Assembly: GCA_029881275.1 (NCBI GenBank)
Contig: JAOUMX010000001.1
Location: 38,949 to 102,948, forward strand
DNA from: Gammaproteobacteria bacterium
GTDB lineage: Bacteria; Pseudomonadota; Gammaproteobacteria; SZUA-229
Reading direction: 5' to 3'
Length of the DNA stretch: 64,000 nucleotides
A program made the position numbers and the translations under genes. This document shows positions 9,909-61,509 of this stretch, piece by piece (the first letter of the stretch is position 1; every line of letters begins with the position of its first letter). The notes beneath the pieces are model-generated. The model ran no database searches. It was not told where the DNA came from and saw only the letters and a list, made by a program, of their open reading frames with translations.

Positions 9909-10910
9909 ATGACAACGTCTGTTCTTATCTGCGATGATTCAAGTCTGGCGCGAAAACAAATGGCACGTTCTTTACCTTCTGACTGGGATGTTGATGTCAG
10001 CTTTGCAGAAAATGGTTTGCTGGGGCTTAAGGCATTAAAAGAAGGTAAAGGTGAGATATTATTTCTTGATCTTAATATGCCGGAAATGGATGGCTATGAG
10101 GTTCTAAATGCTATCCGTGAAAATGAATTATCAACATTAGTGGTGGTTGTTTCAGGTGATATACAACCAGAAGCTTATCAACGTGTAATTTCAATGGGCG
10201 CACTGGATTTCGTAAAAAAACCGGTTGATGCCAGACAGATCCAGGATATCTTTCATAAATACGGAATATATGCTAAGCCGACAATAGATAATCCAGTTAA
10301 ATCTAGAGAAGCAGATTTTGAGGTTAAATATGAAGATGGCTATCAGGAAATTGCTAATGTCGCTATGGGGCGCGCAGCTGATCTATTGGCGCGCTTATTA
10401 AATGTTTTTGTTATCCTGCCAATACCAAATGTTAATATGTTTGAGAATAGCGAATTGCGTATGGCATTGCGTGATATTGCAGACAATGATTCTGTATCGG
10501 GTGTTTGTCAGGGTTTCATAGGGTCTGGTATTGCCGGGGAAGCATTATTGATTTTTAATGATTCCAGTTTTGAAGATATAGCGGAATTAATTAAATATGA
10601 CGGCAAAATTGATGACTCCGTACAACTTGAATTACTCATGGATATATCCAGTATTCTGATTGGTGCCTGTTTAAAGGGGATAGCTGACCAACTGGATGTT
10701 AATTTTAGTCAGGGGCATCCTGTTGTTATAGACAGGCATGTTAAAGTGAATGATCTTCTAAATCAGAATGTATCTCAGTGGAAACAAACATTAGCAATAG
10801 AAATAGCGTATAAAATAGAGAATAAACGTATTAATTGCGAGCTGCTGCTGTTGTTTACTGAGGATTCTATACCTTCTTTAAACCAGCGTATATCTTATAT
10901 AGTAGATTGA
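9909..10910 (+). CDS. Response regulator with N-terminal receiver (REC) domain fused to a CheC/CheX-like phosphatase-type domain
   Basis: REC: 'VLICDDSSLARK...ILFLDLNMPEMDGYEVL...VVVVSGD...GALDFVKKP'. C-terminal half carries the CheC signature 'DGYQEIANVAMGRAADLLARLL' (D-x3-E-I-x-N-[VI]-x2-G-x-AA-x2-L) and a degenerate second repeat 'ELLMDISSILIGAC'. Confidence 0.7.
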   Translation: MTTSVLICDDSSLARKQMARSLPSDWDVDVSFAENGLLGLKALKEGKGEILFLDLNMPEMDGYEVLNAIRENELSTLVVVVSGDIQPEAYQRVISMGALDFVKKPVDARQIQDIFHKYGIYAKPTIDNPVKSREADFEVKYEDGYQEIANVAMGRAADLLARLLNVFVILPIPNVNMFENSELRMALRDIADNDSVSGVCQGFIGSGIAGEALLIFNDSSFEDIAELIKYDGKIDDSVQLELLMDISSILIGACLKGIADQLDVNFSQGHPVVIDRHVKVNDLLNQNVSQWKQTLAIEIAYKIENKRINCELLLLFTEDSIPSLNQRISYIVD

Positions 10911-10914
10911 TAAG

Positions 10915-11889
10915 ATGTTAAAAATTGACATAAAAGAATTTCACTGGATGATGGATATGATTCAGCATCTTGATGTTGGCTTAATTGTTCTTGATAAAGA
11001 ATATAAAGTTAATGTCTGGAATTCTTTTATGGAGAATCACAGTGGTTATACGCCAAATGATGTAATTGGTAAGAATTTATTCGAGGTTTTTAAAAATATT
11101 CCTGAAAGCTGGTTTAAGCGTAAATCCGAATCAGTGTTTTTGCTGAATAATCGTGCATTTACTACCTGGGAGCAAAGGCCTTATTTATTTAAATTTAAAA
11201 ATTATAGACCAATAACAGGCTCAGCTGCTTTTATGTACCAGGATATTACGCTTATACCATTAACATCTGTTGACGGAACTGTGAATCATATTGGTGTTAT
11301 TATTTATGATGTGACAGATATTGCAGTCAATAAATTAGGGCTTAAAGTTGCAAATGAAGAATTAGGAATTCTTAGTCGTACGGATATGCTAACAAAGTTA
11401 TATAACCGTGGCTATTGGGAGGAGCGATTGTTACATGAGTTTTCTCTCCATAAACGAAACAAGCAGGCTGTTTCTCTGGTTATGTTTGATATTGATCACT
11501 TTAAGAAAGTTAATGATACCTATGGACACCAGGCGGGAGATGAGGTGATTAGAGTAACGTCTAAATTACTGATTGACTGTAAGCGCGAAACAGATATCGC
11601 CGGCCGTTATGGCGGGGAGGAATTTGCTGTTATTTTGCTGGATTCGACAGCACAAAACGCATTGCTCTTTACAGAACGTCTGCGTAAGCGAATAGAAGAA
11701 AGCCGTGTTTCAGTCGGCTCAGATTCAATTAAATTTACAGTCAGTCTTGGGATTTCAGATTTAACCGAGAAAACTCAGGATTATGAAGAATGGCTTAAGC
11801 AGTCAGATATGGCATTGTATAGAGCAAAAGAAAGTGGTAGAAATCAGTCGGTCATTTATGATGTAAACCTCAATGGAGCTATAAAATAA
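10915..11889 (+). CDS. PAS-domain diguanylate cyclase (GGDEF)
   Basis: N-terminal PAS-like region followed by 'LTKLYNRGYW', 'MFDIDHFKKVNDTYGHQAGDEV', and an intact active site 'RYGGEEF'. Lies 4 nt after the preceding gene. Confidence 0.85.
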   Translation: MLKIDIKEFHWMMDMIQHLDVGLIVLDKEYKVNVWNSFMENHSGYTPNDVIGKNLFEVFKNIPESWFKRKSESVFLLNNRAFTTWEQRPYLFKFKNYRPITGSAAFMYQDITLIPLTSVDGTVNHIGVIIYDVTDIAVNKLGLKVANEELGILSRTDMLTKLYNRGYWEERLLHEFSLHKRNKQAVSLVMFDIDHFKKVNDTYGHQAGDEVIRVTSKLLIDCKRETDIAGRYGGEEFAVILLDSTAQNALLFTERLRKRIEESRVSVGSDSIKFTVSLGISDLTEKTQDYEEWLKQSDMALYRAKESGRNQSVIYDVNLNGAIK

Positions 11890-35777: not shown

Positions 35778-36887
35778 ATGAGTTTTGATGAGCTGATTAA
35801 TAAATTAAATTTCTTTGATAGTGAGCATGCCTGGATTTCACAGGTATTTATTGTTGTACTGGTATCACTAATTTTAGATTTTGTACAAAAAATTATTTTA
35901 AATAAACTGCATATAAAACTGGAGTCAACAAAAAATCGCTGGGATGACATATTCATTGTTTCTGCGAAAAAGCCACTGAGTTACCTTATCTGGTTAATTG
36001 GTATTACATTAGCGGCTGAAATAGTCCAGCACCAAAGTGATGCTGCCATATTTTCAATTATTACACCCATTCGAGAAATTGGTGTGATTTTGATTATTAT
36101 GCTGTTTCTTCTTAAGCTTGTGCAAGGTGCTCAGGATATTTTTATTGAAAGCGAGACTAAAACAGGTGAAAAGGATTTTGATAGGCACACAGTAGAAGCT
36201 ATAGCTAAATTGTTTCGCGCTTCGATACTTATCACCGGTGCATTAGTGATGTTACAGACATTGGGATACAGTATTTCTGGCGTGTTGGCATTTGGTGGTA
36301 TTGGTGGTGTTGCTGTTGGTTTTGCCGCCAAAGATATGTTGGCTAACTTTTTTGGTGGACTAATGATTTACCTGGAGAGGCCATTTAAAATTGGAGACTG
36401 GATTCGCTCAAATGACAGAGATATAGAGGGTACGGTTGAACATATTGGTTGGCGGCTTACGCGTATTCGGACTTTTGATAAACGTCCTCTGTATGTGCCA
36501 AATTCCGTGTTCTCAAATATAGCGGTTGAAAATCCTTCGAGAATGACTAATCGACGTATATATGAAACCATTGGTATTCGATATGGCGATGCACATAAAA
36601 TGGAAAATATAGTTTCACAAGTAAAACAGATGTTACTTAGTCACCCAGAAATAGATACTCAACAAACATTAATTGTTAATTTTAATAAGTTTGCTTCTTC
36701 ATCTGTTGATTTCTTTATTTACACTTTTACCAAAACTACTGACTGGATAGCGTTTCATGAAATTAAACAGGATGTTTTGCTTAAAATTATGAGTATAATT
36801 GAGTCTAATAATGCGGAAATAGCATTTCCGACCTCGACACTGCATGTGCAGACTATGCCTAAAGTTACTGATCCGGAGATACATTAA
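35778..36887 (+). CDS. Mechanosensitive channel, MscS family
   Basis: TM helices followed by a beta-domain region ('FKIGDWIRSNDRDIEGTVEHIGWRLTRIRTFDKRPLYVPNS'). Confidence 0.85.
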   Translation: MSFDELINKLNFFDSEHAWISQVFIVVLVSLILDFVQKIILNKLHIKLESTKNRWDDIFIVSAKKPLSYLIWLIGITLAAEIVQHQSDAAIFSIITPIREIGVILIIMLFLLKLVQGAQDIFIESETKTGEKDFDRHTVEAIAKLFRASILITGALVMLQTLGYSISGVLAFGGIGGVAVGFAAKDMLANFFGGLMIYLERPFKIGDWIRSNDRDIEGTVEHIGWRLTRIRTFDKRPLYVPNSVFSNIAVENPSRMTNRRIYETIGIRYGDAHKMENIVSQVKQMLLSHPEIDTQQTLIVNFNKFASSSVDFFIYTFTKTTDWIAFHEIKQDVLLKIMSIIESNNAEIAFPTSTLHVQTMPKVTDPEIH

Positions 36888-37255
36888 TGGCAGATAAATT
36901 GCTTGTGGTTATGGCAAATACAGATTTATCCAATGCGGCTGAACTTGTGCCTCCTTTACTACAGGCAACTGTCGCTGCGGCTATGGAGTATGAGGTCGAA
37001 ATATTGCTAACAGGAAAGGCAGGGCGCCTGGCTATGAAAGGTGTTGCTGAAGAACTGGTTTTTATGGAGTCAGATAAAAAAACTGTATACGATCATATTA
37101 AACAGGCTAAAGCAGCTGGTGTTGTATTTAAAGTTTGTACGCCTGCCTTAAAGTTATGGGGTGATGATTTGATACCAGAAATTAACGAAACTGTGGGTGG
37201 TGCCTATATCATCAGTGAAGCGATGAATGATGGTGTTGTTACCTTTACATATTAA
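36887..37255 (+). CDS. DsrE/DsrF/TusD-like (YchN-fold) small protein
   Basis: 122-aa soluble protein with the 'LLVVMANTD' start typical of the DsrE-like fold and a single Cys in 'VFKVCTPAL'. ATGA overlap with the mscS stop. Confidence 0.5.
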   Translation: MADKLLVVMANTDLSNAAELVPPLLQATVAAAMEYEVEILLTGKAGRLAMKGVAEELVFMESDKKTVYDHIKQAKAAGVVFKVCTPALKLWGDDLIPEINETVGGAYIISEAMNDGVVTFTY

Positions 37256-40136: not shown

Positions 40137-41321
40137 ATGAAGACATTTAAAACACTAATTCCTGTTTTGTTTCTGATAGCATTGTCATTTTATGGTTATT
40201 ATAAATATGTTCAATTCCCTTCAGTTATTATAAACGGGATTGTTTTCTTACCTGTTTTTCTAGCTGTACTTGTTGTTGGTCTGGCTATTCATTTTAATCG
40301 TAGTTCGGTTTTCTTTTATGCAGTGACTATCATAATAGCTAACCTCGTGCTTGGGCTGAGCCTGGCCAGTACCGAATTAAGCTATGCATTATTGTCTATT
40401 TTTCTGCCATTATTAATTCCTGTTATAACAATGTTGCCTGAAAGAGGAATAATAAGTGCCAGGGCTATACCCGCATATACAGTATTTTTAATCGCTATTC
40501 TATTTTCTGTTGTAGTGATAATGACTTCAGCAGAATGGGCTAATTATATTTTTCTGACGAACTGGTTACCACCTCGTTATTTTGACTGGACACATCAATC
40601 ACAAACTGTTCTGATCATTTCATTTTTAGCCACTATTTATATGATTGTGCTTTATTTTCTCAGGCCTTCTCCTCATGTTGCTTCTGGATTAGGAATTATG
40701 ATCATGCTGATTGTTCAGTTACATTCTGGTCATGTTAGTAGAAGTCTTAATATATTTAGCAGTATCGCATTTTTCATGTGCCTTTATGCTGTTATGCAGG
40801 AGTCCTGGCGTATGGCATATCTTGATGAGTTAACTGAGTTACCATCAAGAAGAGCTTTGCGTGAAAAGTTTCAAAAAATAAGTGGTTTATATGCTGTTGC
40901 TATGCTGGATGTGGATCATTTTAAGAAATTCAATGATACATATGGTCATGATACTGGTGATGCGGTATTGCGTATGATCGCCACCAAATTGAAGAAGGTT
41001 ACCGGTGGTGGTTCGTATTATCGATATGGTGGCGAAGAATTTACTATCGTCTTTAACGGAAAAAGTACCAATGAAGCAAGGCTCCATCTTGAAAATCTGC
41101 GTGAATTAATTGCAACTACACCTTTTGTTATTAATCGTGCCAGTAGACGAATAAATGATAGAAAAGAAAAAAACAAAAAAAATAAATCCGTGGTGGTTAC
41201 TGTTTCAATTGGCATGGCAGATTCAACTAAAGGCTCTTCATCTCCATGGGATGTAATGAAGTCCGCGGATAAAGCATTGTATCGTGCAAAAGAAAAAGGT
41301 CGAAATTGCCTTTCCGAATGA
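40137..41321 (+). CDS. Integral-membrane diguanylate cyclase (polytopic N-terminal sensor + GGDEF)
   Basis: About 6 TM helices, then 'LDVDHFKKFNDTYGHDTGD' and an intact 'RYGGEEF'. Confidence 0.85.
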   Translation: MKTFKTLIPVLFLIALSFYGYYKYVQFPSVIINGIVFLPVFLAVLVVGLAIHFNRSSVFFYAVTIIIANLVLGLSLASTELSYALLSIFLPLLIPVITMLPERGIISARAIPAYTVFLIAILFSVVVIMTSAEWANYIFLTNWLPPRYFDWTHQSQTVLIISFLATIYMIVLYFLRPSPHVASGLGIMIMLIVQLHSGHVSRSLNIFSSIAFFMCLYAVMQESWRMAYLDELTELPSRRALREKFQKISGLYAVAMLDVDHFKKFNDTYGHDTGDAVLRMIATKLKKVTGGGSYYRYGGEEFTIVFNGKSTNEARLHLENLRELIATTPFVINRASRRINDRKEKNKKNKSVVVTVSIGMADSTKGSSSPWDVMKSADKALYRAKEKGRNCLSE

Positions 41322-41531
41322 ATTCTTCAAAGTCCCTACTACTCTGAATTTTTTAATTCACTGTGTCTAGATCGATTTAACCTTATTTTTTATCTTACTA
41401 TTCAAGCGACGTCAGCGTGAAGTAAGAATATTGTTATTAATAATTAGTATTATTTATGTGGATATAAAAATATACTTGTATTTTGAGTTTTTGACTATAA
41501 TATTTATGTCGGTGAAAGCTGAATTGTTTGT

Positions 41532-41567
41532 AGATTAATTACATATTTTACGTAAGGTAATTAATCT
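41532..41567. promoter_or_regulatory. 36-bp palindrome (11-bp perfect arms agattaattac / gtaattaatct around a TACGTA core), putative operator upstream of the dsrC/tusE-like gene
   Basis: Read directly from the sequence. Lies about 40 bp upstream of the ATG and is followed by a C7 tract at 41578-41584. Confidence 0.45.
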
Positions 41568-41607
41568 GTGTGCTACGCCCCCCCATGCATGAATAGGAGA
41601 AATGTTT

Positions 41608-41949
41608 ATGATGCTTGAAATTAGTGGCAGGAAAGTTGAGACCAATACACAGGGTTTCTTGTGTAATATTGATGAATGGAGTGAATCTTATACTGAAAAA
41701 ATGGCGGAACAGGATGGTATAAAATTATACAATGACCATTGGGAATTGATTTTGTATTTCAGGGAGTATTACTATGAAACACAAAAGATACCGACAATGC
41801 ATAAGGTAGTACGCGAATTAGGTAAAAAAAATGTGCATTTTCATGATCAAAAGGAATATGAAAAACACATTTATAAACTTTTTCCAAGAGACGCTGCACA
41901 TGAAGTATGTAAACTGGCCGGTCTTCCTATGCCACAACCTGACGATTAA
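41608..41949 (+). CDS. DsrC/TusE-family protein lacking the C-terminal penultimate cysteine
   Basis: Nearly collinear with E. coli TusE ('GRKVETNTQGFL', 'LYRLFP' counterpart 'IYKLFP', 'KLAGLPMP'), but ends '...CKLAGLPMPQPDD' where TusE and DsrC end 'KIAGLPKPVKCI' / 'LPKPTGCV'. RBS 'aggaga' 7 nt upstream. Confidence 0.75.
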   Translation: MMLEISGRKVETNTQGFLCNIDEWSESYTEKMAEQDGIKLYNDHWELILYFREYYYETQKIPTMHKVVRELGKKNVHFHDQKEYEKHIYKLFPRDAAHEVCKLAGLPMPQPDD

Positions 41950-41970
41950 TTAACAGGGCTAATACAATTA

Positions 41971-42004
41971 AAAAAACCCGGCTTGTTCTATGCCGGGTTT
42001 TTTT
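41971..42004. terminator. Bidirectional rho-independent terminator between convergent genes
   Basis: A6-cccggc-loop-gccggg-T8. Confidence 0.8.
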
Positions 42005-42013
42005 TAGTATTAT

Positions 42014-42979
42014 TTAAGGGATTGGTTTTAATTCTTTTTCTTGAGCAGTTGCTTTAACAAAACCATATTTTTCATAAATGTTTTGCGCCTGGTCAGATAC
42101 CAGGTATGAAAGGTAGCTTTGAGCATTGGATTGATTACGGCCGGTTTTTAATATGCCTATTGCATAGCCAACTTTATCAGACATATTGTAAGGTGCTTCG
42201 ATAGCAACACCTTCAATAGCTCGATTCTCTGATTGCGCATGTTTAACTTCGGTTGTCCAGACAATGCCTACATCTGCAAGATTATTTTCTATACGATGTG
42301 GTGTTTCTCTATGATGGCGAGCGGTAAACCAGGTCTTATCTTTAATTGCCCAGCAACTTTTGCATTTTTGGTCATTAGTAACTTTTTCATATAGGCCGAG
42401 CTGTTTCAGCATTTCCATGCCATAAAATTTGAATATGCCTTCTGTTAATGGGTTTGGGTGCGATTGCACAAGATCATCACGACCTAGATCCATAGCGCCT
42501 TTAATATTTTTAGGGTTTCCTTTTGCAACCATCAATTCCAGTTTGTTGTGAATATAGATAAGATAATCATCCATTTGATTTTTAGATTTCAATGTTTTTA
42601 AATGACCTAGATTAACACTGGCAAATAGATCAGGGTTTTGAGCTGTTTTCTGACCATTAATTTCACCTTGTTTGAGGATCTGACCTTTTAGAATTTGGCC
42701 TGGAGGAATAGTTTCAACATAGACTGTTTTGATATGTTTGTTATTGATCAGGAAATCCTTAATTAATTCTTCCATCACCATAAACTGATTACCAGCCAGG
42801 TACATGACCAGGTCTGCCGTGTAAGAATCGCCTATTTTCCCATAATCAATTTCACCATTACTATGAAAAGTCCGGTAATCATGTCCTTGACCGGCGTCAT
42901 TATCAGCCGCGTACAGCTGTGTTTGAGTCATAGCAAGAAAGAATGTAACCAGAAGGATTTGACGAATTGATTTAATCAT
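42014..42979 (-). CDS. Orphan periplasmic binding protein of the ModA (molybdate/tungstate/oxyanion, type II PBP) family
   Basis: Signal peptide 'MIKSIRQILLVTFFLAMTQTQLYA' with RBS GGAGG. ModA-like blocks 'NPDLFASVN', 'LADVGIVWTTEV' and C-terminal 'AQNIYEKYGF'. No ABC permease or ATPase genes nearby. Confidence 0.65.
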   Translation of the reverse strand: MIKSIRQILLVTFFLAMTQTQLYAADNDAGQGHDYRTFHSNGEIDYGKIGDSYTADLVMYLAGNQFMVMEELIKDFLINNKHIKTVYVETIPPGQILKGQILKQGEINGQKTAQNPDLFASVNLGHLKTLKSKNQMDDYLIYIHNKLELMVAKGNPKNIKGAMDLGRDDLVQSHPNPLTEGIFKFYGMEMLKQLGLYEKVTNDQKCKSCWAIKDKTWFTARHHRETPHRIENNLADVGIVWTTEVKHAQSENRAIEGVAIEAPYNMSDKVGYAIGILKTGRNQSNAQSYLSYLVSDQAQNIYEKYGFVKATAQEKELKPIP

Positions 42980-43149: not shown

Positions 43150-44661
43150 TTATGCAAGAGGGAGTTCGAACCAGAAAATACTGCCAGATGCCGGTTCGCT
43201 TTCGACGCCAATAGAACCATTCATTGCTTCAATTAACTGTTTGCTTATATGCAAACCAACGCCGATTCCTGAAATAGTGCCCTGTTTCTGATCTAGTCGT
43301 TCAAAAGGGGTGAACATGAGTGATAGATTCTCTTTGGATATACCAAGACCAGTATCTTTAATTTCGATTCGTAATTTATTATCTGATTTGATAAAACAGC
43401 TAACTATAACACGTCCATGTTCTCTGTTGAATTTTACAGCATTGGTTATAAGATTAATTAAAACCTGACGAAAACATTGTTCATCAGCTTTTACCATCAA
43501 TGTTGTGTCTGTAATTGTGTTATCTATGGTTATCTGATTTATATTGACCATGGTGGTTAGAATTCGAGTAATGCATTCTCGACTTATATTGGCTACGCAA
43601 AGTGATTGAGTATTTATATTTTGTATTTTGCTTTCAATATGTGAAAGGCTGAGAGCTTGATTAATTATATCCAGTAAATGGTTGCCGGCATCAAGAATAT
43701 ATCCTGACCACTCCTGTCGTTCAGATGAATTTGGTGTAACTTGCATTTCCATTAACTGGGAAAATCCAAGGATGGCATTCAGTGGGGTGCGCAATTCGTG
43801 ACTCATGATTTCCAGAAACTGGCTTTTTGCCTGATTTGCATTTTCTGCTTTTATGGTAGCTTTTAAAAGGTTTTGCTGTGACTCTTTTAGTTGTTTTGCC
43901 ATTCTGTTAAACGCAATTGCTAATAGTCCAAGTTCGTCTTCTATTTTCACATCAATTGATGTATCAAAGTTGCCTTTTCCAATTTCGATTGATGTTTTCT
44001 TTAGATTATTTATAGGAATAGAGATACTGCGTACGATTAGAAATGATAGTAGTGCTATTAATATTAATGATATAGCTATTGCTAAAATAGTCGCATTATT
44101 GGCATTCGAAATAATCTGATTAACGGAATTTTTCTTTTCTTCCACTTCTTCTTCTTCTATTTCAATTAATTCACTAAACAGGAGAAATGCCTGGTTCTGA
44201 AATTCGTTTATTTCCTGGAGGATTTCATTCTTATTATTTGAGTCGGTGGTTTCGGTGGTGAGTATTTTATTTACAAAAGCGTTTTGATTGTTAAAGATGC
44301 TGTATTTAGTTATCCATTTTTCCATATTAGGTGCGCAAGGTTCATCTGCGGCTTTTGCTGTATTATAAGCGTCTTTATAGTTGGCTAGTTCAGCGTCAAT
44401 TTTTGTAAGTAGAGTCTGAATTTCATTTTTACTAACACTTTCTTGTGATCTTATGTAATTGGTTAGTTTAGATGATAGATAGGCATGATATGATGACATT
44501 TTTTCACCTGCTCTAAGTGCTAGCAGGGGGTCTTTGTGTAAATAATTAAAGGCATGACCAATACTGTTTAGATTGTTGACGCCAATATAGCCGATAATTG
44601 TCATAGCTATACCGAATATCATGCATAAAATTAATAATTTATGACTGATTTTAATATTCAT
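43150..44661 (-). CDS. Sensor histidine kinase: TM, about 160-aa periplasmic helical sensor, TM, HAMP, HisKA, HATPase; no receiver
   Basis: H-box 'MSHELRTPLNAILGFSQLM', N-box 'LINLITNAVKF', G-boxes 'DTGLGI' and 'GSIGVESEPASGS'. Two hydrophobic helices flank the sensor region. Confidence 0.85.
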   Translation of the reverse strand: MNIKISHKLLILCMIFGIAMTIIGYIGVNNLNSIGHAFNYLHKDPLLALRAGEKMSSYHAYLSSKLTNYIRSQESVSKNEIQTLLTKIDAELANYKDAYNTAKAADEPCAPNMEKWITKYSIFNNQNAFVNKILTTETTDSNNKNEILQEINEFQNQAFLLFSELIEIEEEEVEEKKNSVNQIISNANNATILAIAISLILIALLSFLIVRSISIPINNLKKTSIEIGKGNFDTSIDVKIEDELGLLAIAFNRMAKQLKESQQNLLKATIKAENANQAKSQFLEIMSHELRTPLNAILGFSQLMEMQVTPNSSERQEWSGYILDAGNHLLDIINQALSLSHIESKIQNINTQSLCVANISRECITRILTTMVNINQITIDNTITDTTLMVKADEQCFRQVLINLITNAVKFNREHGRVIVSCFIKSDNKLRIEIKDTGLGISKENLSLMFTPFERLDQKQGTISGIGVGLHISKQLIEAMNGSIGVESEPASGSIFWFELPLA

Positions 44662-44817: not shown

Positions 44818-45441
44818 CTATAGTGTTTTGAGAATACTACTCGCTACTTCTAGATAACCTTTTCTGGCAAATAAAAATTGTAATCGATTGCCACCACATT
44901 GCCTCCAGAGGACTGCTGAACGGATTCCTGAGAGTAATAAGGCACGTATTTTATTGGCATTACTGGTTTGATTTAAATATCCTTGTTCTCCATCAACCAG
45001 GATGCGAGGAGTTAAGGTGCTTATTGTCTCCTGATAAAGTCCGGCCAGGCTGGCAATGATGTTTTCATGGGTTAAACTGAAAAAATCCATTTTATCCTGT
45101 GTTGTTTTAAGGCTGTCAGCAATCTTATTAAGCATGGTTTTATTTTTGCTTAATTTTCTTTCCAGATGGATCATGCCTAGAACATAGCGGGTTATTTCCA
45201 TGTCTTCTTTAGTATTACTACCGGATAGTTGTTTTTTTAATGATCTGAGACCGATAGATATATCTGCAGGGCTACCGTAGATGTCAAGTACATTATTGCT
45301 ATCAAATTTAAACAGAGTCTCCAGGCTGATTTCCATAGCTGCGCTTGAAGCAGAACCTGTTCGGGCAATCTGCTGTACCATGCTGGCAACCTGAAAAATG
45401 CCTGCGAGGGCAAGGGTTCTATCTTGTTTTGAGTATTTCAT
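44818..45441 (-). CDS. hflD: High-frequency-lysogenization protein HflD homologue (UPF0274)
   Basis: 207 aa with 'DRTLALAGIFQVASMVQQIARTG'. Immediately downstream of mnmA, as in E. coli. Confidence 0.75.
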   Translation of the reverse strand: MKYSKQDRTLALAGIFQVASMVQQIARTGSASSAAMEISLETLFKFDSNNVLDIYGSPADISIGLRSLKKQLSGSNTKEDMEITRYVLGMIHLERKLSKNKTMLNKIADSLKTTQDKMDFFSLTHENIIASLAGLYQETISTLTPRILVDGEQGYLNQTSNANKIRALLLSGIRSAVLWRQCGGNRLQFLFARKGYLEVASSILKTL

Positions 45442-45443
45442 AT

Positions 45444-46538
45444 TTAGTCGTTGTACATTTTGTCAATGACTCCACCACCAAGACAAATGTCATTATCATA
45501 AAAAACAATGGATTGTCCGGGTGTGATAGCTCTTTGTGGTTGCTCGAATTTAACTTTAACTGTTCTGTTATCAAGTTCCAATATTTCGCAGGCCTGATCC
45601 GGCTGGCGATAGCGTACTTTTGCTGCGTATTTAAAAGATGGCTCTGGCGGTTTCCCGCTGACCCAGTCTAACTGACTGGCGTTAAGGTATTGATGAAATA
45701 GCTGTGGGTGATTCTCACCCTGACCAACAATTAAAATATTATTTTCAAGATCTTTGGCAAGGCTGTACCAGGCTTCTTCGTCTGTTCCTTTTACTCCACC
45801 TATGCCAAGTCCTTTTCTTTGGCCTAGTGTGTAGTACATTAAACCATGGTGTTTACCAATGACTTTTCCATCAGTGGTCTGTATTTCTCCAGGTTGAGCA
45901 GGAAGATATTGCTGGAGAAAATCCTTGAATTTTCTTTCCCCTATAAAACAGATTCCTGTACTGTCTTTTTTGGCATGGTTGACAAAATTAGCCTGTTCAG
46001 CCAGTAATCGAACCTCTTCTTTTTCAAGTAGACCGACTGGAAAAAGACTGTGTTTTAATTGATGTTGACCAAGCGTATATAAAAAATAACTCTGATCTTT
46101 ATTGCTGTCAGTGCCTTTTAATAAATAATAATGATCATTAATATTTTCTACACGTACATAATGACCGGTTGCAATATAATCCGCCCCCATTTGCAGTGCA
46201 TAATCGAGGAAAGCCTTAAATTTTATTTCTTTATTACAAAGAATATCAGGGTTTGGCGTTCTTCCCGCACTATATTCATCAAGAAAGTGTTTAAATACAC
46301 GATCCCAGTATTGGTCTGAAAAATTTACGCTATGTAATTTTATGTTTAATTGATCGCATACTTTCCTGGCATCATCCAGATCTATCGCGGCTGCACAATA
46401 ATCATCGTCGTCATCCTGTTCCCAGTTTTTCATGAACAGGCCTTCAACCTGGTAACCCAGTTCAATGAGTTTTAATGCAGCTACTGATGAGTCAACACCA
46501 CCTGACATGCCAACAATGACGCGTTTATTTGAAATCAT
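45444..46538 (-). CDS. mnmA: tRNA-specific 2-thiouridylase
   Basis: PP-loop '[15 protein letters not shown]', 364 aa. Confidence 0.93.
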
Positions 46539-59091: not shown

Positions 59092-61509
59092 ATGAGCAAA
59101 TCAATTCAGCAACTTGAATATGAATTAAAAAATGCAAAAGCCCGTATCGAGGAACTGGAATTACGGGAACAATCTCAATTAGTTGAACTAACTCTACATA
59201 GCCAGATTTTACAAAATATGTCAGAAGGCGTGTATATGGTCAGTGCTGACGATTCTGCTATTGTTTATGCCAATCCGGTGTTTGAAAAAATGTTTGGTTA
59301 TGAACATGGCGAACTGGTCGGGAAACATGTCAGTATAGTTAATGCACCTGATACGCATCCGGAGAAAACAGCCAGTGATATTATAGGCTATCTTGAAAAA
59401 ACAGGTCGCTGGCAGGGCGAGATCAAGAATATTAAAAAAGATGGGACTGTATTCTGGTGTCTTGCTAATGTTTCATTGTATAAAAGTTCACAATATGGAT
59501 CTGTTTATATTTCGGTTCACCAGGATATAACTCAACAAAAAAAGATAGAAGGTGAATTAGCTAAGAAAAGCGAGTTCGAAAATCGGTTATTTGAAACGGC
59601 ACAAGTTATTATTCTTGTGCTTGATACAGAAGGTCGGATTGTGAATATTAATCCTTACATGGAGTCAAAAACCGGCTATAAACTTGATGAGATTGTTGGA
59701 AAAGACTGGTTTGATACTTTTATTCCTGGCCCAGATCAGAAAGCCATTAGAGAATTATTTAGAACCTGTATTCATGATATTAAAACAAATGGCAATATTA
59801 ACCCAATACTAACGAAAAATGGCGAGCTAATAGATGTTGAATGGTACGATTCTACATTGAAAGATTCTAAAGGTAGTGTTATTGGGTTGCTTGCGATTGG
59901 TCAGGACGTTACTGAAAAACGAAAATCCCAGATTGAACATCAGAAAACCTTGGGTAGCTTAATTGAAATTCAAAATGCCATGGATCTCATTGGTCTGGGT
60001 ATTCACATGGTGACAATGGATGGTGAATTTCTTTATGTTAATGATGCAGCTGCAAATATGCTGGGTTATTCGAAACAGGAATTACTAGGTAAGGGCATAG
60101 AAGGTATAGATCCTAATTATACAAAAGAAAGCTTTTCCAGGGTCACATCTTCTTTGCGGTGTAATAATCCCGGTAAAATTGAAACCACTCAACTTTCAAA
60201 AAACGGGGTTCTAATACCTGTTGAAGTTGCATTTCATTATTTTCCAGAAACGACTAATAGACCAGAACATTTTATTTCTTTTCTAACTGATTTGACAGAG
60301 CGTAAAGCTGTTGACGCTGAAAATAAAAAATTACAACAGCAATTGTTGCAGTCACAGAAAATGGAAGCGATTGGTCATTTAACCGGTGGTATTGCACATG
60401 ATTTCAATAATATGCTTGCTGCAATACTGGGATATGCTGGGTTAATAGAAAATGACCTGATGGATGAATTAAAGACCAGGAACAAGTCAAAAGATTATCT
60501 TGATCAAATAATGTTGGCAGCTAACAGGGCAAGAGAACTTATTGGTCAAATGTTGATCTTTAGTCGACAATCATCAGATGATGTTGCTGATGTGCCTGTG
60601 ATTGAACTTCAACCTGTTGTTAAAGAAGTTGTTAACTTATTGAAATCATCTATTCCTGCCACAATTAATATAAGCCTTAATGTGATAAATGATGATTTGC
60701 ATGCTCAGATTAATTCTGTTCAATTGCACCAGGTTATTCTCAATTTAGGTATAAATGCACGTGATGCTATAGATAATTATGGTCATATTAATATTAGTTT
60801 ACAAAAACAAAATATACATGATGTGTGTATGTCCTGTCATAATGAATTTAATGGTGATTATGCAGAAATTATAATTTCTGACACGGGTAGTGGTATACCT
60901 GTGGATAAATTAGCCAGAATTTTTGAGCCTTTTTATACGACTAAAGAGATAGGCAAAGGAACAGGAATGGGATTATCTGTTGTGCATGGTGTTATTCATG
61001 CAAATGGTGGTCACATTCTAGTGTCAAATAATACAAATAAGGGATTAACAGTTCGTATTTTATTGCCTTTAATTGAGATTAGTGAGGTTAAAGATAATAA
61101 AGACGAGGTGCTTTCTGATATAGATAACCAATTGTCCGGTTTACGTATTATGATTGTTGATGATGAGAGGCAAATTGCATCAATGATGGGTGAGATATTT
61201 GAAATGCACGGTGCAGAAGCAATTGTCTATAATCGATCTGCTGATGCGCTTGATTATTTTAAGGGACATCCCTATGAAGTGGATTTGATATTGACAGATG
61301 AAACCATGCCAGGGTTAAGTGGTCTGGATATGTCAAAGTCTATGCTCGCTATTCGATCAAATCTACCCATTATTATCAGTACGGGTTATAGTGAGCATGT
61401 TAATCCCAAAATTGCACGTCAGCATGGGATATCCGGGTTTATGATGAAGCCTGTAAAGATAGAAAATTTGCTTGCAATGATTAGTGATTTAACACTATCA
61501 AAAAACTAA
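59092..61509 (+). CDS. Cytoplasmic hybrid sensor histidine kinase (coiled coil, about 3 PAS, HisKA, HATPase, REC)
   Basis: No TM helix. PAS repeats ('VYMVSADDSAIVYANPVFEKMFGY...'), H-box 'IGHLTGGIAHDFNNML', G-box 'DTGSGIPV', receiver 'LRIMIVDDE...LILTDETMPGLSG'. Confidence 0.85.
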   Translation: MSKSIQQLEYELKNAKARIEELELREQSQLVELTLHSQILQNMSEGVYMVSADDSAIVYANPVFEKMFGYEHGELVGKHVSIVNAPDTHPEKTASDIIGYLEKTGRWQGEIKNIKKDGTVFWCLANVSLYKSSQYGSVYISVHQDITQQKKIEGELAKKSEFENRLFETAQVIILVLDTEGRIVNINPYMESKTGYKLDEIVGKDWFDTFIPGPDQKAIRELFRTCIHDIKTNGNINPILTKNGELIDVEWYDSTLKDSKGSVIGLLAIGQDVTEKRKSQIEHQKTLGSLIEIQNAMDLIGLGIHMVTMDGEFLYVNDAAANMLGYSKQELLGKGIEGIDPNYTKESFSRVTSSLRCNNPGKIETTQLSKNGVLIPVEVAFHYFPETTNRPEHFISFLTDLTERKAVDAENKKLQQQLLQSQKMEAIGHLTGGIAHDFNNMLAAILGYAGLIENDLMDELKTRNKSKDYLDQIMLAANRARELIGQMLIFSRQSSDDVADVPVIELQPVVKEVVNLLKSSIPATINISLNVINDDLHAQINSVQLHQVILNLGINARDAIDNYGHINISLQKQNIHDVCMSCHNEFNGDYAEIIISDTGSGIPVDKLARIFEPFYTTKEIGKGTGMGLSVVHGVIHANGGHILVSNNTNKGLTVRILLPLIEISEVKDNKDEVLSDIDNQLSGLRIMIVDDERQIASMMGEIFEMHGAEAIVYNRSADALDYFKGHPYEVDLILTDETMPGLSGLDMSKSMLAIRSNLPIIISTGYSEHVNPKIARQHGISGFMMKPVKIENLLAMISDLTLSKN

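Follow-up and report, generated by a model that had tools for sequence, protein, structure and literature searches.

The window analyzed here is a stretch of 64,000 nucleotides (nt) from a gammaproteobacterium of the lineage SZUA-229 (GenBank assembly GCA_029881275.1, contig JAOUMX010000001.1, positions 38,949 to 102,948 of the forward strand). An open reading frame (ORF) of 115 amino acids, listed at 41602–41949 on the plus strand, encodes a small protein of the DsrC/TusE/DsvC family in which the penultimate cysteine, CysA, is replaced by aspartate. The gene is preceded by a leader containing a promoter-like box, an inverted repeat and a run of seven C residues, and is followed by an intrinsic terminator (Table 1). 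Because homolog N-termini read MMLE, MVLE or MTLN and the second ATG of the ORF is preceded by a Shine-Dalgarno (SD) sequence, the start is placed at this ATG (41608), which gives a product of 113 amino acids with the C-terminus ...HEVCKLAGLPMPQPDD. The record P0001 has the same amino acid sequence.

The protein matches the Pfam DsrC family PF04358 over residues 4–110 (E = 1.1e-29; 103.5 bits against a cut-off of 24.9) and the NCBIfam profile TIGR03342 (95.4 bits against a cut-off of 53.5). Its score against the TusE equivalog NF008562, 80.5 bits, is below the 191-bit cut-off of that model. The top sequence match among solved structures is DsrC of Allochromatium vinosum (1yx3; E = 1.3e-20). 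An AlphaFold2 model built from a 116-sequence alignment has a predicted local distance difference test (pLDDT) value of 88, and its eight best PDB matches in Foldseek are all DsrC-family chains, with 1yx3 in first place (template modeling (TM) score 0.83, 34% identity). A weak resemblance between the helical core and the DNA-binding domain of LexA, from the same method, was not significant (E about 2). Asp112 lies 11 residues after Cys101, the CysB equivalent, and thus at the CysA site of the CysB-X10-CysA motif. An earlier note on this DNA, made from the letters alone, had described a DsrC/TusE-family protein whose arm retains only a CysB-equivalent cysteine and carries Asp in place of the persulfide-bearing one, and both family profiles and the positions of Cys101 and Asp112 bear this description out. 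The near-invariant histidines H44, H65, H79 and H87 accompany C101 and D112 in the clade, and the six residues together suggest a candidate metal site.

A fixed terminus and its place in the family

Pooling of proteins and loci gave 234 distinct relatives, of which 232 have readable tails. Asp occupies the CysA position in all 232 and Cys the CysB position in 231; one clade member carries Ser there. Every readable tail ends in PD[D/T/S], so that the final residue is always D, T or S, and the last eight positions are free of Cys in all 234 relatives. All 120 of the best database homologs (59–100% identity) end in CKL[AS]GLP.P.PD[DT], and a terminus of the same kind is present in each of 83 loci, 80 of them from genomes. 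The clade alignment has a mean column identity of 73% and 19 invariant columns, including Pro111 and Asp112; the clade has the terminus signature LP[ML]P[QPT]PD[DTS]. Three more independent contigs encode the identical protein.

A terminus so atypical for the family could in principle reflect a sequencing or assembly error, or a tusE or dsrC gene decaying into a pseudogene; apart from the atypical terminus itself, no support for such an artefact was found, and its probability is negligible. Against both stand the terminus common to the 234 relatives, the recurrence of the identical protein on independent contigs, the strong column conservation and the confident structure model, and sequencing error is excluded. 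The frameshift near the 3′ end that might have hidden a ...GCx terminus, a concern of the earlier note, is absent, since all readable tails share the PD[D/T/S] end. The loss of CysA is real and ancient, and the gene is a bona fide, selectively maintained DsrC paralog of a CysA-less lineage. A subgroup from pelagic marine metagenomes (TARA and others; loci L113–L140), 55–60% identical, ends in ...PMPQADS.

An exhaustive HMMER search of cluster representatives returned 994 relatives at E ≤ 0.001 and only 3 at E ≤ 1e-30; from these numbers the clade is compact and clearly set off from its relatives. In a neighbor-joining tree of single-domain representatives it nests in a wider CysA-less set, characterized by [CA]K[LI]AGLPKP and acidic tails. 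This set stands apart from the TusE group, which keeps CysA and has Thr, Ala or Ser at CysB, and also from the DsrC groups, which keep both cysteines. The comparison with TusE, DsrC and RspA clades that had been recommended as a check thus puts Asp112 at the CysA position and the clade among the CysA-less proteins.

The protein resembles A. vinosum DsrC (Alvin_1256, PDB 1yx3) in its CysB, its AGLP hinge and the length of its arm, but differs in having Asp for CysA, Pro for the preceding Gly, and Met or Leu for the Lys of LPKP. The CysB-X10-CysA pattern of DsrC sensu stricto is broken, with Cys101 present but Asp at 112, and the gene in the window lies outside any dsr operon. DiSCo treats DsrC, TusE and RspA as one family with three classes and recognizes DsrC by AGLPKPTG(not N)CA with at most one mismatch (PMC8477390); the corresponding segment here, AGLPMPQPDD, has several. 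E. coli TusE (YccK), which relays sulfur for 2-thiouridine, is collinear with the protein, as had been noted earlier (residues 2–109 align to positions 1–105 of the 109 in the TusE model). However, it shows the opposite cysteine pattern, with CysA and without CysB. The penultimate cysteine of TusE (E. coli Cys108), which accepts sulfur from TusD, is Asp here, the two proteins fall into different tree groups, and no tusBCD genes lie near the gene.

The remaining class is RspA. In Methylovirgula thiovorans, two CysA-less DsrC-like proteins near the dsr cluster were assigned to it (Gwak et al. 2022, PMC9371685). The name stands for ‘regulatory sulfur-related proteins’, for which PMC9371685 cites Venceslau et al. 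2014. By its sequence the protein is an RspA in the sense used there, as a member of the DsrC family without CysA, and the earlier suggestion that CysA-less homologs have a non-relay, possibly regulatory role matches this label. The likeness extends to the DsrC fold, the missing penultimate cysteine and the occurrence as an extra paralog beside a genuine DsrC in sulfur oxidizers. In some genomes it also includes proximity to dsrAB, as for MHY1_00075 in Methylovirgula thiovorans (PMC9371685) and for the Burkholderiales metagenome-assembled genomes (MAGs) examined here. In contrast to other RspA proteins, the clade keeps CysB almost always and has a fixed terminus of its own, while sister CysA-less groups end differently; the function of RspA is itself only a hypothesis. 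The literature searched did not show which of the A. vinosum paralogs Alvin_0028, 0345, 0732 and 1508 corresponds to the clade.

On several contigs the gene lies beside a canonical dsrC (product ending ...CKYAGLPKPTGCV) and a second CysA-less paralog. The presence of canonical DsrC on the same contigs indicates that the gene is an extra paralog and not a replacement. The second CysA-less paralog forms a clade of its own (...C[RI][LI]AGL..PAG..D..FGSV), lies no more than a few kb from the gene in about 10 loci (Table 1) and passes TIGR03342 with 57.7 bits. Like the protein described here it usually keeps CysB and occurs in the same sulfur-oxidizer genomes, but the two are only 27–39% identical, its C-terminus is about 9 residues longer, and it splits off separately, close to the root of the tree.

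Among 185,579 species-representative genomes, a scan confirmed the clade at 173 places. The hosts include Thiogranum, Thiohalobacter, Thiohalophilus, Thiotrichaceae, Ectothiorhodospiraceae, Acidiferrobacterales, Arenicellales, Candidatus Muproteobacteria and Burkholderiales, which we take to be sulfur oxidizers, and the clade thus spans Gamma- and Betaproteobacteria of this type. Further relatives came from marine sediment and the water column in a metagenome scan; a scan of viral contigs gave none.

The leader of the gene

The only conserved intergenic block upstream of the orthologs is CTATA[AC]T. It lies 83–92 nt before the ATG in the main subclade, in which the gene has a holB context, and 112 nt before it in the window. 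We infer from this conservation that the box is a −10 element. The inverted repeat lies 30–66 nt downstream of it, roughly at +23 to +58 of the inferred transcript, and its 11-nt arms (41532–41542 and 41557–41567) are 100% complementary and 14 nt apart. The near-perfect palindrome reported in the earlier note is therefore present with perfect arms, but its supposed core, TACGTA (41549–41554), sits 2 nt off the symmetry center in a spacer that is otherwise non-palindromic.

The note had taken this palindrome for an operator under tight repressor control and the C7 run for a possible slip-strand modulator of expression, an explanation that now appears quite improbable. Perfect inverted repeats of at least 11 nt with a loop of at most 30 nt number three in the 64 kb, against about 0.5 expected in first-order Markov shuffles of the window, and the other two are terminator-type hairpins. 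Also in favor of it, the arms of the repeat are invariant in four near-identical assemblies while the spacer carries one single-nucleotide polymorphism (SNP), and the C tract varies from C4 to C10 between species. However, a search for perfect inverted repeats of at least 8 nt in the 260 nt upstream of every homolog recovered the same repeat in near-identical strains only; two other loci (L063 and L067) carry repeats of unrelated sequence at comparable offsets. The repeat is also single-copy in the window, and its half-sites are 25 bp apart from center to center, a spacing that is atypical and off helical phase for a dimeric repressor. Since the repeat lies downstream of the only conserved promoter-like box and would thus be transcribed, it is probably a hairpin of the 5′ untranslated region (UTR) and not an operator. 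In the fold predicted for the leader it is the dominant stem-loop. Long hairpins unrelated to it precede the C tracts of L004 and L005, the nearest relatives (fold z = −2.5 and −3.1).

The C7 run is present as described and is the only C run of at least six in the window. Slip-strand modulation would call for variation in its length, but C7 is the assembly consensus in the window and in the near-identical loci L001, L002 and L003, four independent assemblies, despite five SNPs in the same 321 nt. The tract lies between the inferred promoter and the SD sequence, outside the ORF and outside the −35/−10 spacer. Of 27 distinct related leaders, 25 have C-rich tracts (C4–C10, often CUCCCC) at the corresponding position, and this recurrence points to a conserved leader element rather than to a hypervariable switch. 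Tracts that start with CUCC are predicted to pair with the SD sequence, with a probability of 0.6–0.99 in seven leaders. In the window the tract is predicted to be unpaired and the SD sequence exposed (pairing about 0), and an anti-SD model of the tract was not adopted at this locus. For a hairpin directly after the tract (P2) there is good support in the main subclade (mean z = −1.8 in 18 leaders), but the window leader lacks it.

In one gammaproteobacterial subclade the leader follows a common order, in which the CTATA[AC]T box comes first, then a variable hairpin and a C-rich tract that is single-stranded, in most members a second hairpin, and last the SD sequence. This arrangement is seen about 50–130 nt before the start codons in the window (41496–41599) and in L004–L010, L013–L017 and L085–L096. 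A search of Rfam 15 with 41300–42050 at a permissive E-value gave no leader match above E = 8, with every match below the gathering score, and the leader may be an undescribed cis-regulatory element. In the marine subgroup L113–L140 the upstream regions are very AT-rich, lack a C tract and share a conserved block of their own (cttgttataaagattaattatgataat). Two tiny ORFs lie in the window leader on the plus strand. One (ATG CAT GAA TAG, 41585–41596) directly follows the C tract, and its stop overlaps the SD sequence; the other, of 10 codons (MSVKAELFVD, 41506–41538), runs from the inferred transcript start into the left arm of the repeat. Both are probably due to chance, as neither has an SD sequence of its own.

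Proposed role and its alternatives

At the center of dissimilatory sulfur metabolism, DsrC serves as the hub that carries sulfur. It is reported to be persulfurated only at the penultimate cysteine (Stockdreher et al. 2012, PMC3397948); the DsrEFH-DsrC interaction requires this residue, Cys111, and CysB is essentially restricted to organisms with DsrAB (PMC3397948). We consider it somewhat more probable than not, at roughly 0.55, that the protein is a non-catalytic regulator or adaptor of the RspA type tied to reverse-Dsr sulfur oxidation, and that the palindrome and the C tract are features of its leader RNA. The protein keeps the fold of DsrC and has an arm just as long, but the penultimate cysteine, which in DsrC forms the persulfide or trisulfide, is exchanged for an invariant Asp after an invariant Pro. 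Because CysA is replaced by Asp, canonical relay or trisulfide chemistry is not expected: judging from the chemistry of DsrC and TusE, the protein would neither accept sulfur from DsrEFH or TusBCD at CysA nor form the CysA-S-CysB trisulfide for DsrAB. With the conserved DsrC surface and the arm it would bind to a partner of the Dsr type or to DNA, and the near-invariant Cys101 may report thiol or persulfide status. The expression unit would comprise the −10 box, a leader of about 100 nt with a stem-loop and a single-stranded C tract, the SD sequence, the coding sequence (CDS) and the bidirectional terminator, with the palindrome and the C tract acting at the RNA level. A link to Dsr metabolism is supported by dsrABEFHC downstream of the gene in Burkholderiales, by canonical DsrC on the same contigs and by the sulfur-oxidizer names of the hosts. 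In three Burkholderiales loci with enough flank, dsrABEFHC lies 3.3–3.8 kb downstream.

Several points weigh against this interpretation. Literature searches found no experimental test of RspA function, and the RspA label rests on a secondary citation (PMC9371685). The clade is acidic, with a median isoelectric point (pI) of 5.1, and DNA binding is therefore not favored. The window is without dsr genes, and Dsr-type metabolism of the organism is deduced from its relatives only. As to the leader, no good −35 element accompanies the box and a consensus scan called no plus-strand promoter here; the whole-leader fold is no more stable than shuffled sequences (z = −1.36); and RNAalifold found no consensus structure in 19 aligned leaders, from a MAFFT alignment that is not structurally registered. 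An operator downstream of the start site, acting as a roadblock, may also account for the repeat.

A second possibility, which we regard as doubtful, is that the protein does carry sulfur, on its single Cys101 (CysB), in a relay distinct from TusBCD-TusE-MnmA and DsrEFH-DsrC-DsrAB. The retention of this cysteine in all but one of the readable sequences, together with the arm length and the AGLP hinge, would suit such a carrier, and one-cysteine DsrC variants can work, e.g. in Desulfurella (PMC8477390). In the window mnmA is only 3.5 kb away. However, DsrC binds sulfur exclusively at the penultimate cysteine and needs the same residue to interact with DsrEFH (PMC3397948), CysB is at the base of the arm and not at its tip, one clade member has Ser at this position, and proximity to mnmA is found in no other locus. 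MnmA, the tRNA 2-thiouridylase, is the partner of true TusE. The mnmA gene forms a pair with hflD (DUF489) on the opposite strand (44818–46538), 2.9–4.6 kb downstream of the gene. Its proximity is probably coincidental, and that of the upstream GGDEF gene is taken in the same way, because no neighbor is conserved across loci.

The regulator or adaptor of the RspA type has also to be weighed against a docking decoy, whose arm has a carboxylate where CysA would be, as well as a rigid P-x-P-x-P, and would fill the DsrC site on DsrAB, DsrMK or DsrEFH and throttle flux without binding DNA. The DsrC-like fold and arm length, the invariant Pro111-Asp112 pair, coexistence with canonical DsrC, adjacency to dsr clusters in Burkholderiales and an acidic pI better suited to protein-protein than to DNA contacts are all consistent with a decoy. 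Yet the Lys of LPKP and the Thr-Gly before CysA, conserved in DsrC, are replaced here, which makes a fit into the DsrAB channel uncertain, and linkage to dsr genes is absent in Gammaproteobacteria. On balance a decoy is unlikely. A distinct functional type is similarly improbable; here the fixed Pro-x-Pro-x-Pro-Asp tail would act as a module for recognition or modification and expression would be set by an undescribed leader RNA, with the order hairpin, single-stranded C-rich tract, (hairpin) and SD sequence in one gammaproteobacterial subclade. Such a tail could be a carboxylate mimic of the oxidized DsrC arm that gates DsrAB or DsrMK, or it could be the substrate of the adjoining PF13640 oxygenase, its Pro/Asp-rich residues being hydroxylated. 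This 2-oxoglutarate (2OG)-Fe(II) oxygenase, which is prolyl-hydroxylase-like, ends 10–15 nt before the gene in all nine betaproteobacterial loci, and the order in the Burkholderiales MAGs is a DUF6866/Sfum_1244-family gene, the oxygenase and the DsrC-like gene (Table 1).

Annotation tools such as DiSCo and METABOLIC, as well as genome surveys, must separate true DsrC from look-alikes, and recognition of a fixed CysA-less lineage avoids over-calling of sulfur-relay or tRNA-thiolation capacity. The clade also offers a well-delimited target for work on an RspA-type function, being CysB-only with an invariant Asp and having a cultured carrier, Thiogranum longum. Seen from the wider field the advance is incremental, since sulfur oxidizers are already known to have CysA-less DsrC paralogs; the small new details are the clade signature (CysB kept, Pro-Asp-[D/T/S] end), the betaproteobacterial oxygenase pairing and the C-rich leader element.

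Neighboring genes and other features

All-against-all clustering of ORFs from the 80 genome loci found no neighbor common to more than 19 of them. The contexts are lineage-specific and of a housekeeping kind (holB-pilZ-tatD, recA-recX-alaS/mutS, esterase D/ruvA), and a conserved operon partner was rejected, as these contexts vary by lineage. The gammaproteobacterial gene is a solitary one, flanked by housekeeping genes and unlinked to dsr genes. In the window it is preceded by a GGDEF gene and followed, on the other strand, by genes for a ModA-like binding protein and a histidine kinase and by hflD and mnmA; the rest of the window is core metabolism. Its own terminator and the differing neighbors of its lineages indicate a stand-alone unit. 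In Rfam, the terminator region (41970–42004) gave generic terminator-like matches only, all of them sub-threshold.

Table 1. Coordinates of the gene, its leader and associated features. Loci outside the window are numbered with the prefix L and have their own coordinates.
Feature	Position	Strand	Basis or remark
Putative −10 box TATAAT	41496-41501	+	Matches CTATA[AC]T of relatives; inferred
Inverted repeat AGATTAATTAC-N14-GTAATTAATCT	41532-41567	+	Probable 5′-UTR stem-loop
C7 tract in leader	41578-41584	+	C-rich tract of the leader
Shine-Dalgarno AGGAG	41595-41599	+	8 nt before ATG 41608; GGAG invariant in aligned leaders
CDS, DsrC/TusE/DsvC family, CysA-less (RspA-type) clade, 113 amino acids	41608-41949	+	PF04358, TIGR03342, AlphaFold2/Foldseek; stop TAA 41947-41949
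Cys101 codon, CysB equivalent	41908-41910	+	Cys in 231/232 clade sequences
Asp112 codon at CysA position	41941-41943	+	Asp in 232/232 clade sequences; aligned to CysA of DsrC and TusE
Bidirectional intrinsic terminator AAAAAAACCCGGC-N9-GCCGGGTTTTTTT	41970-42004	.	Perfect 13-nt arms between A run and T run; common to convergent solute-binding-protein gene
mnmA	45444-46538	-	Annotated ORF
PF13640 oxygenase and DsrC-like gene	L078 9394-9987 and 10001-10345		Also L040, L051, L057 (partial), L059, L066, L071, L073, L081
Second CysA-less paralog	L042 3575-3910	-	Profile/tail motif
Second CysA-less paralog	L043 1064-1429	-	Profile/tail motif
Second CysA-less paralog	L048 1264-1713	-	Profile/tail motif
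Second CysA-less paralog	L051 5388-6143	-	Profile/tail motif
Second CysA-less paralog	L067 4326-4766	-	Profile/tail motif
Second CysA-less paralog	L077 8958-9323	-	Profile/tail motif
Second CysA-less paralog	L082 10506-10874	+	Profile/tail motif
Second CysA-less paralog	L083 6589-6954	-	Profile/tail motif

Among the ORFs annotated across the 64-kb window there is no tusBCD/dsrEFH set and no other dsr gene, in agreement with the earlier observation that no such set was visible. The DsrE-like gene that had been pointed out 4 kb upstream (36887–37255, plus strand) is an ORF whose Pfam matches just exceed their cut-offs (DsrE, 23.6 bits against 22.7; DrsE_2, 26.1 against 25); the assignment is borderline, the ORF has no NCBIfam match, and it is not a conserved neighbor of the DsrC-like gene. 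It starts at the stop of a preceding MscS-type channel gene.

In 17 loci the next gene after the DsrC-like one, about 100 nt downstream and on the same strand, encodes a conserved protein of about 128 amino acids without a Pfam or NCBIfam match (family F4). The F4 loci of the recA-recX-alaS subclade are L021, L025, L028, L030, L031, L034, L045–L047, L052–L054, L063, L068 and L069, and F4 may be a partner transcribed together with the gene.

The window is rich in signaling genes. A membrane GGDEF gene (40137–41321, plus strand) lies directly upstream of the DsrC-like gene, and a 4HB_MCP-HAMP histidine kinase gene (43150–44661, minus strand) is found downstream. A response regulator and a PAS-GGDEF protein are encoded at 9909–11889 and a triple-PAS hybrid kinase at 59092–61509, both on the plus strand. 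A sequence cluster of the GGDEF/kinase type, in which these families are pooled, occurred in 19 loci, at varying positions and on either strand, without forming a fixed partner.

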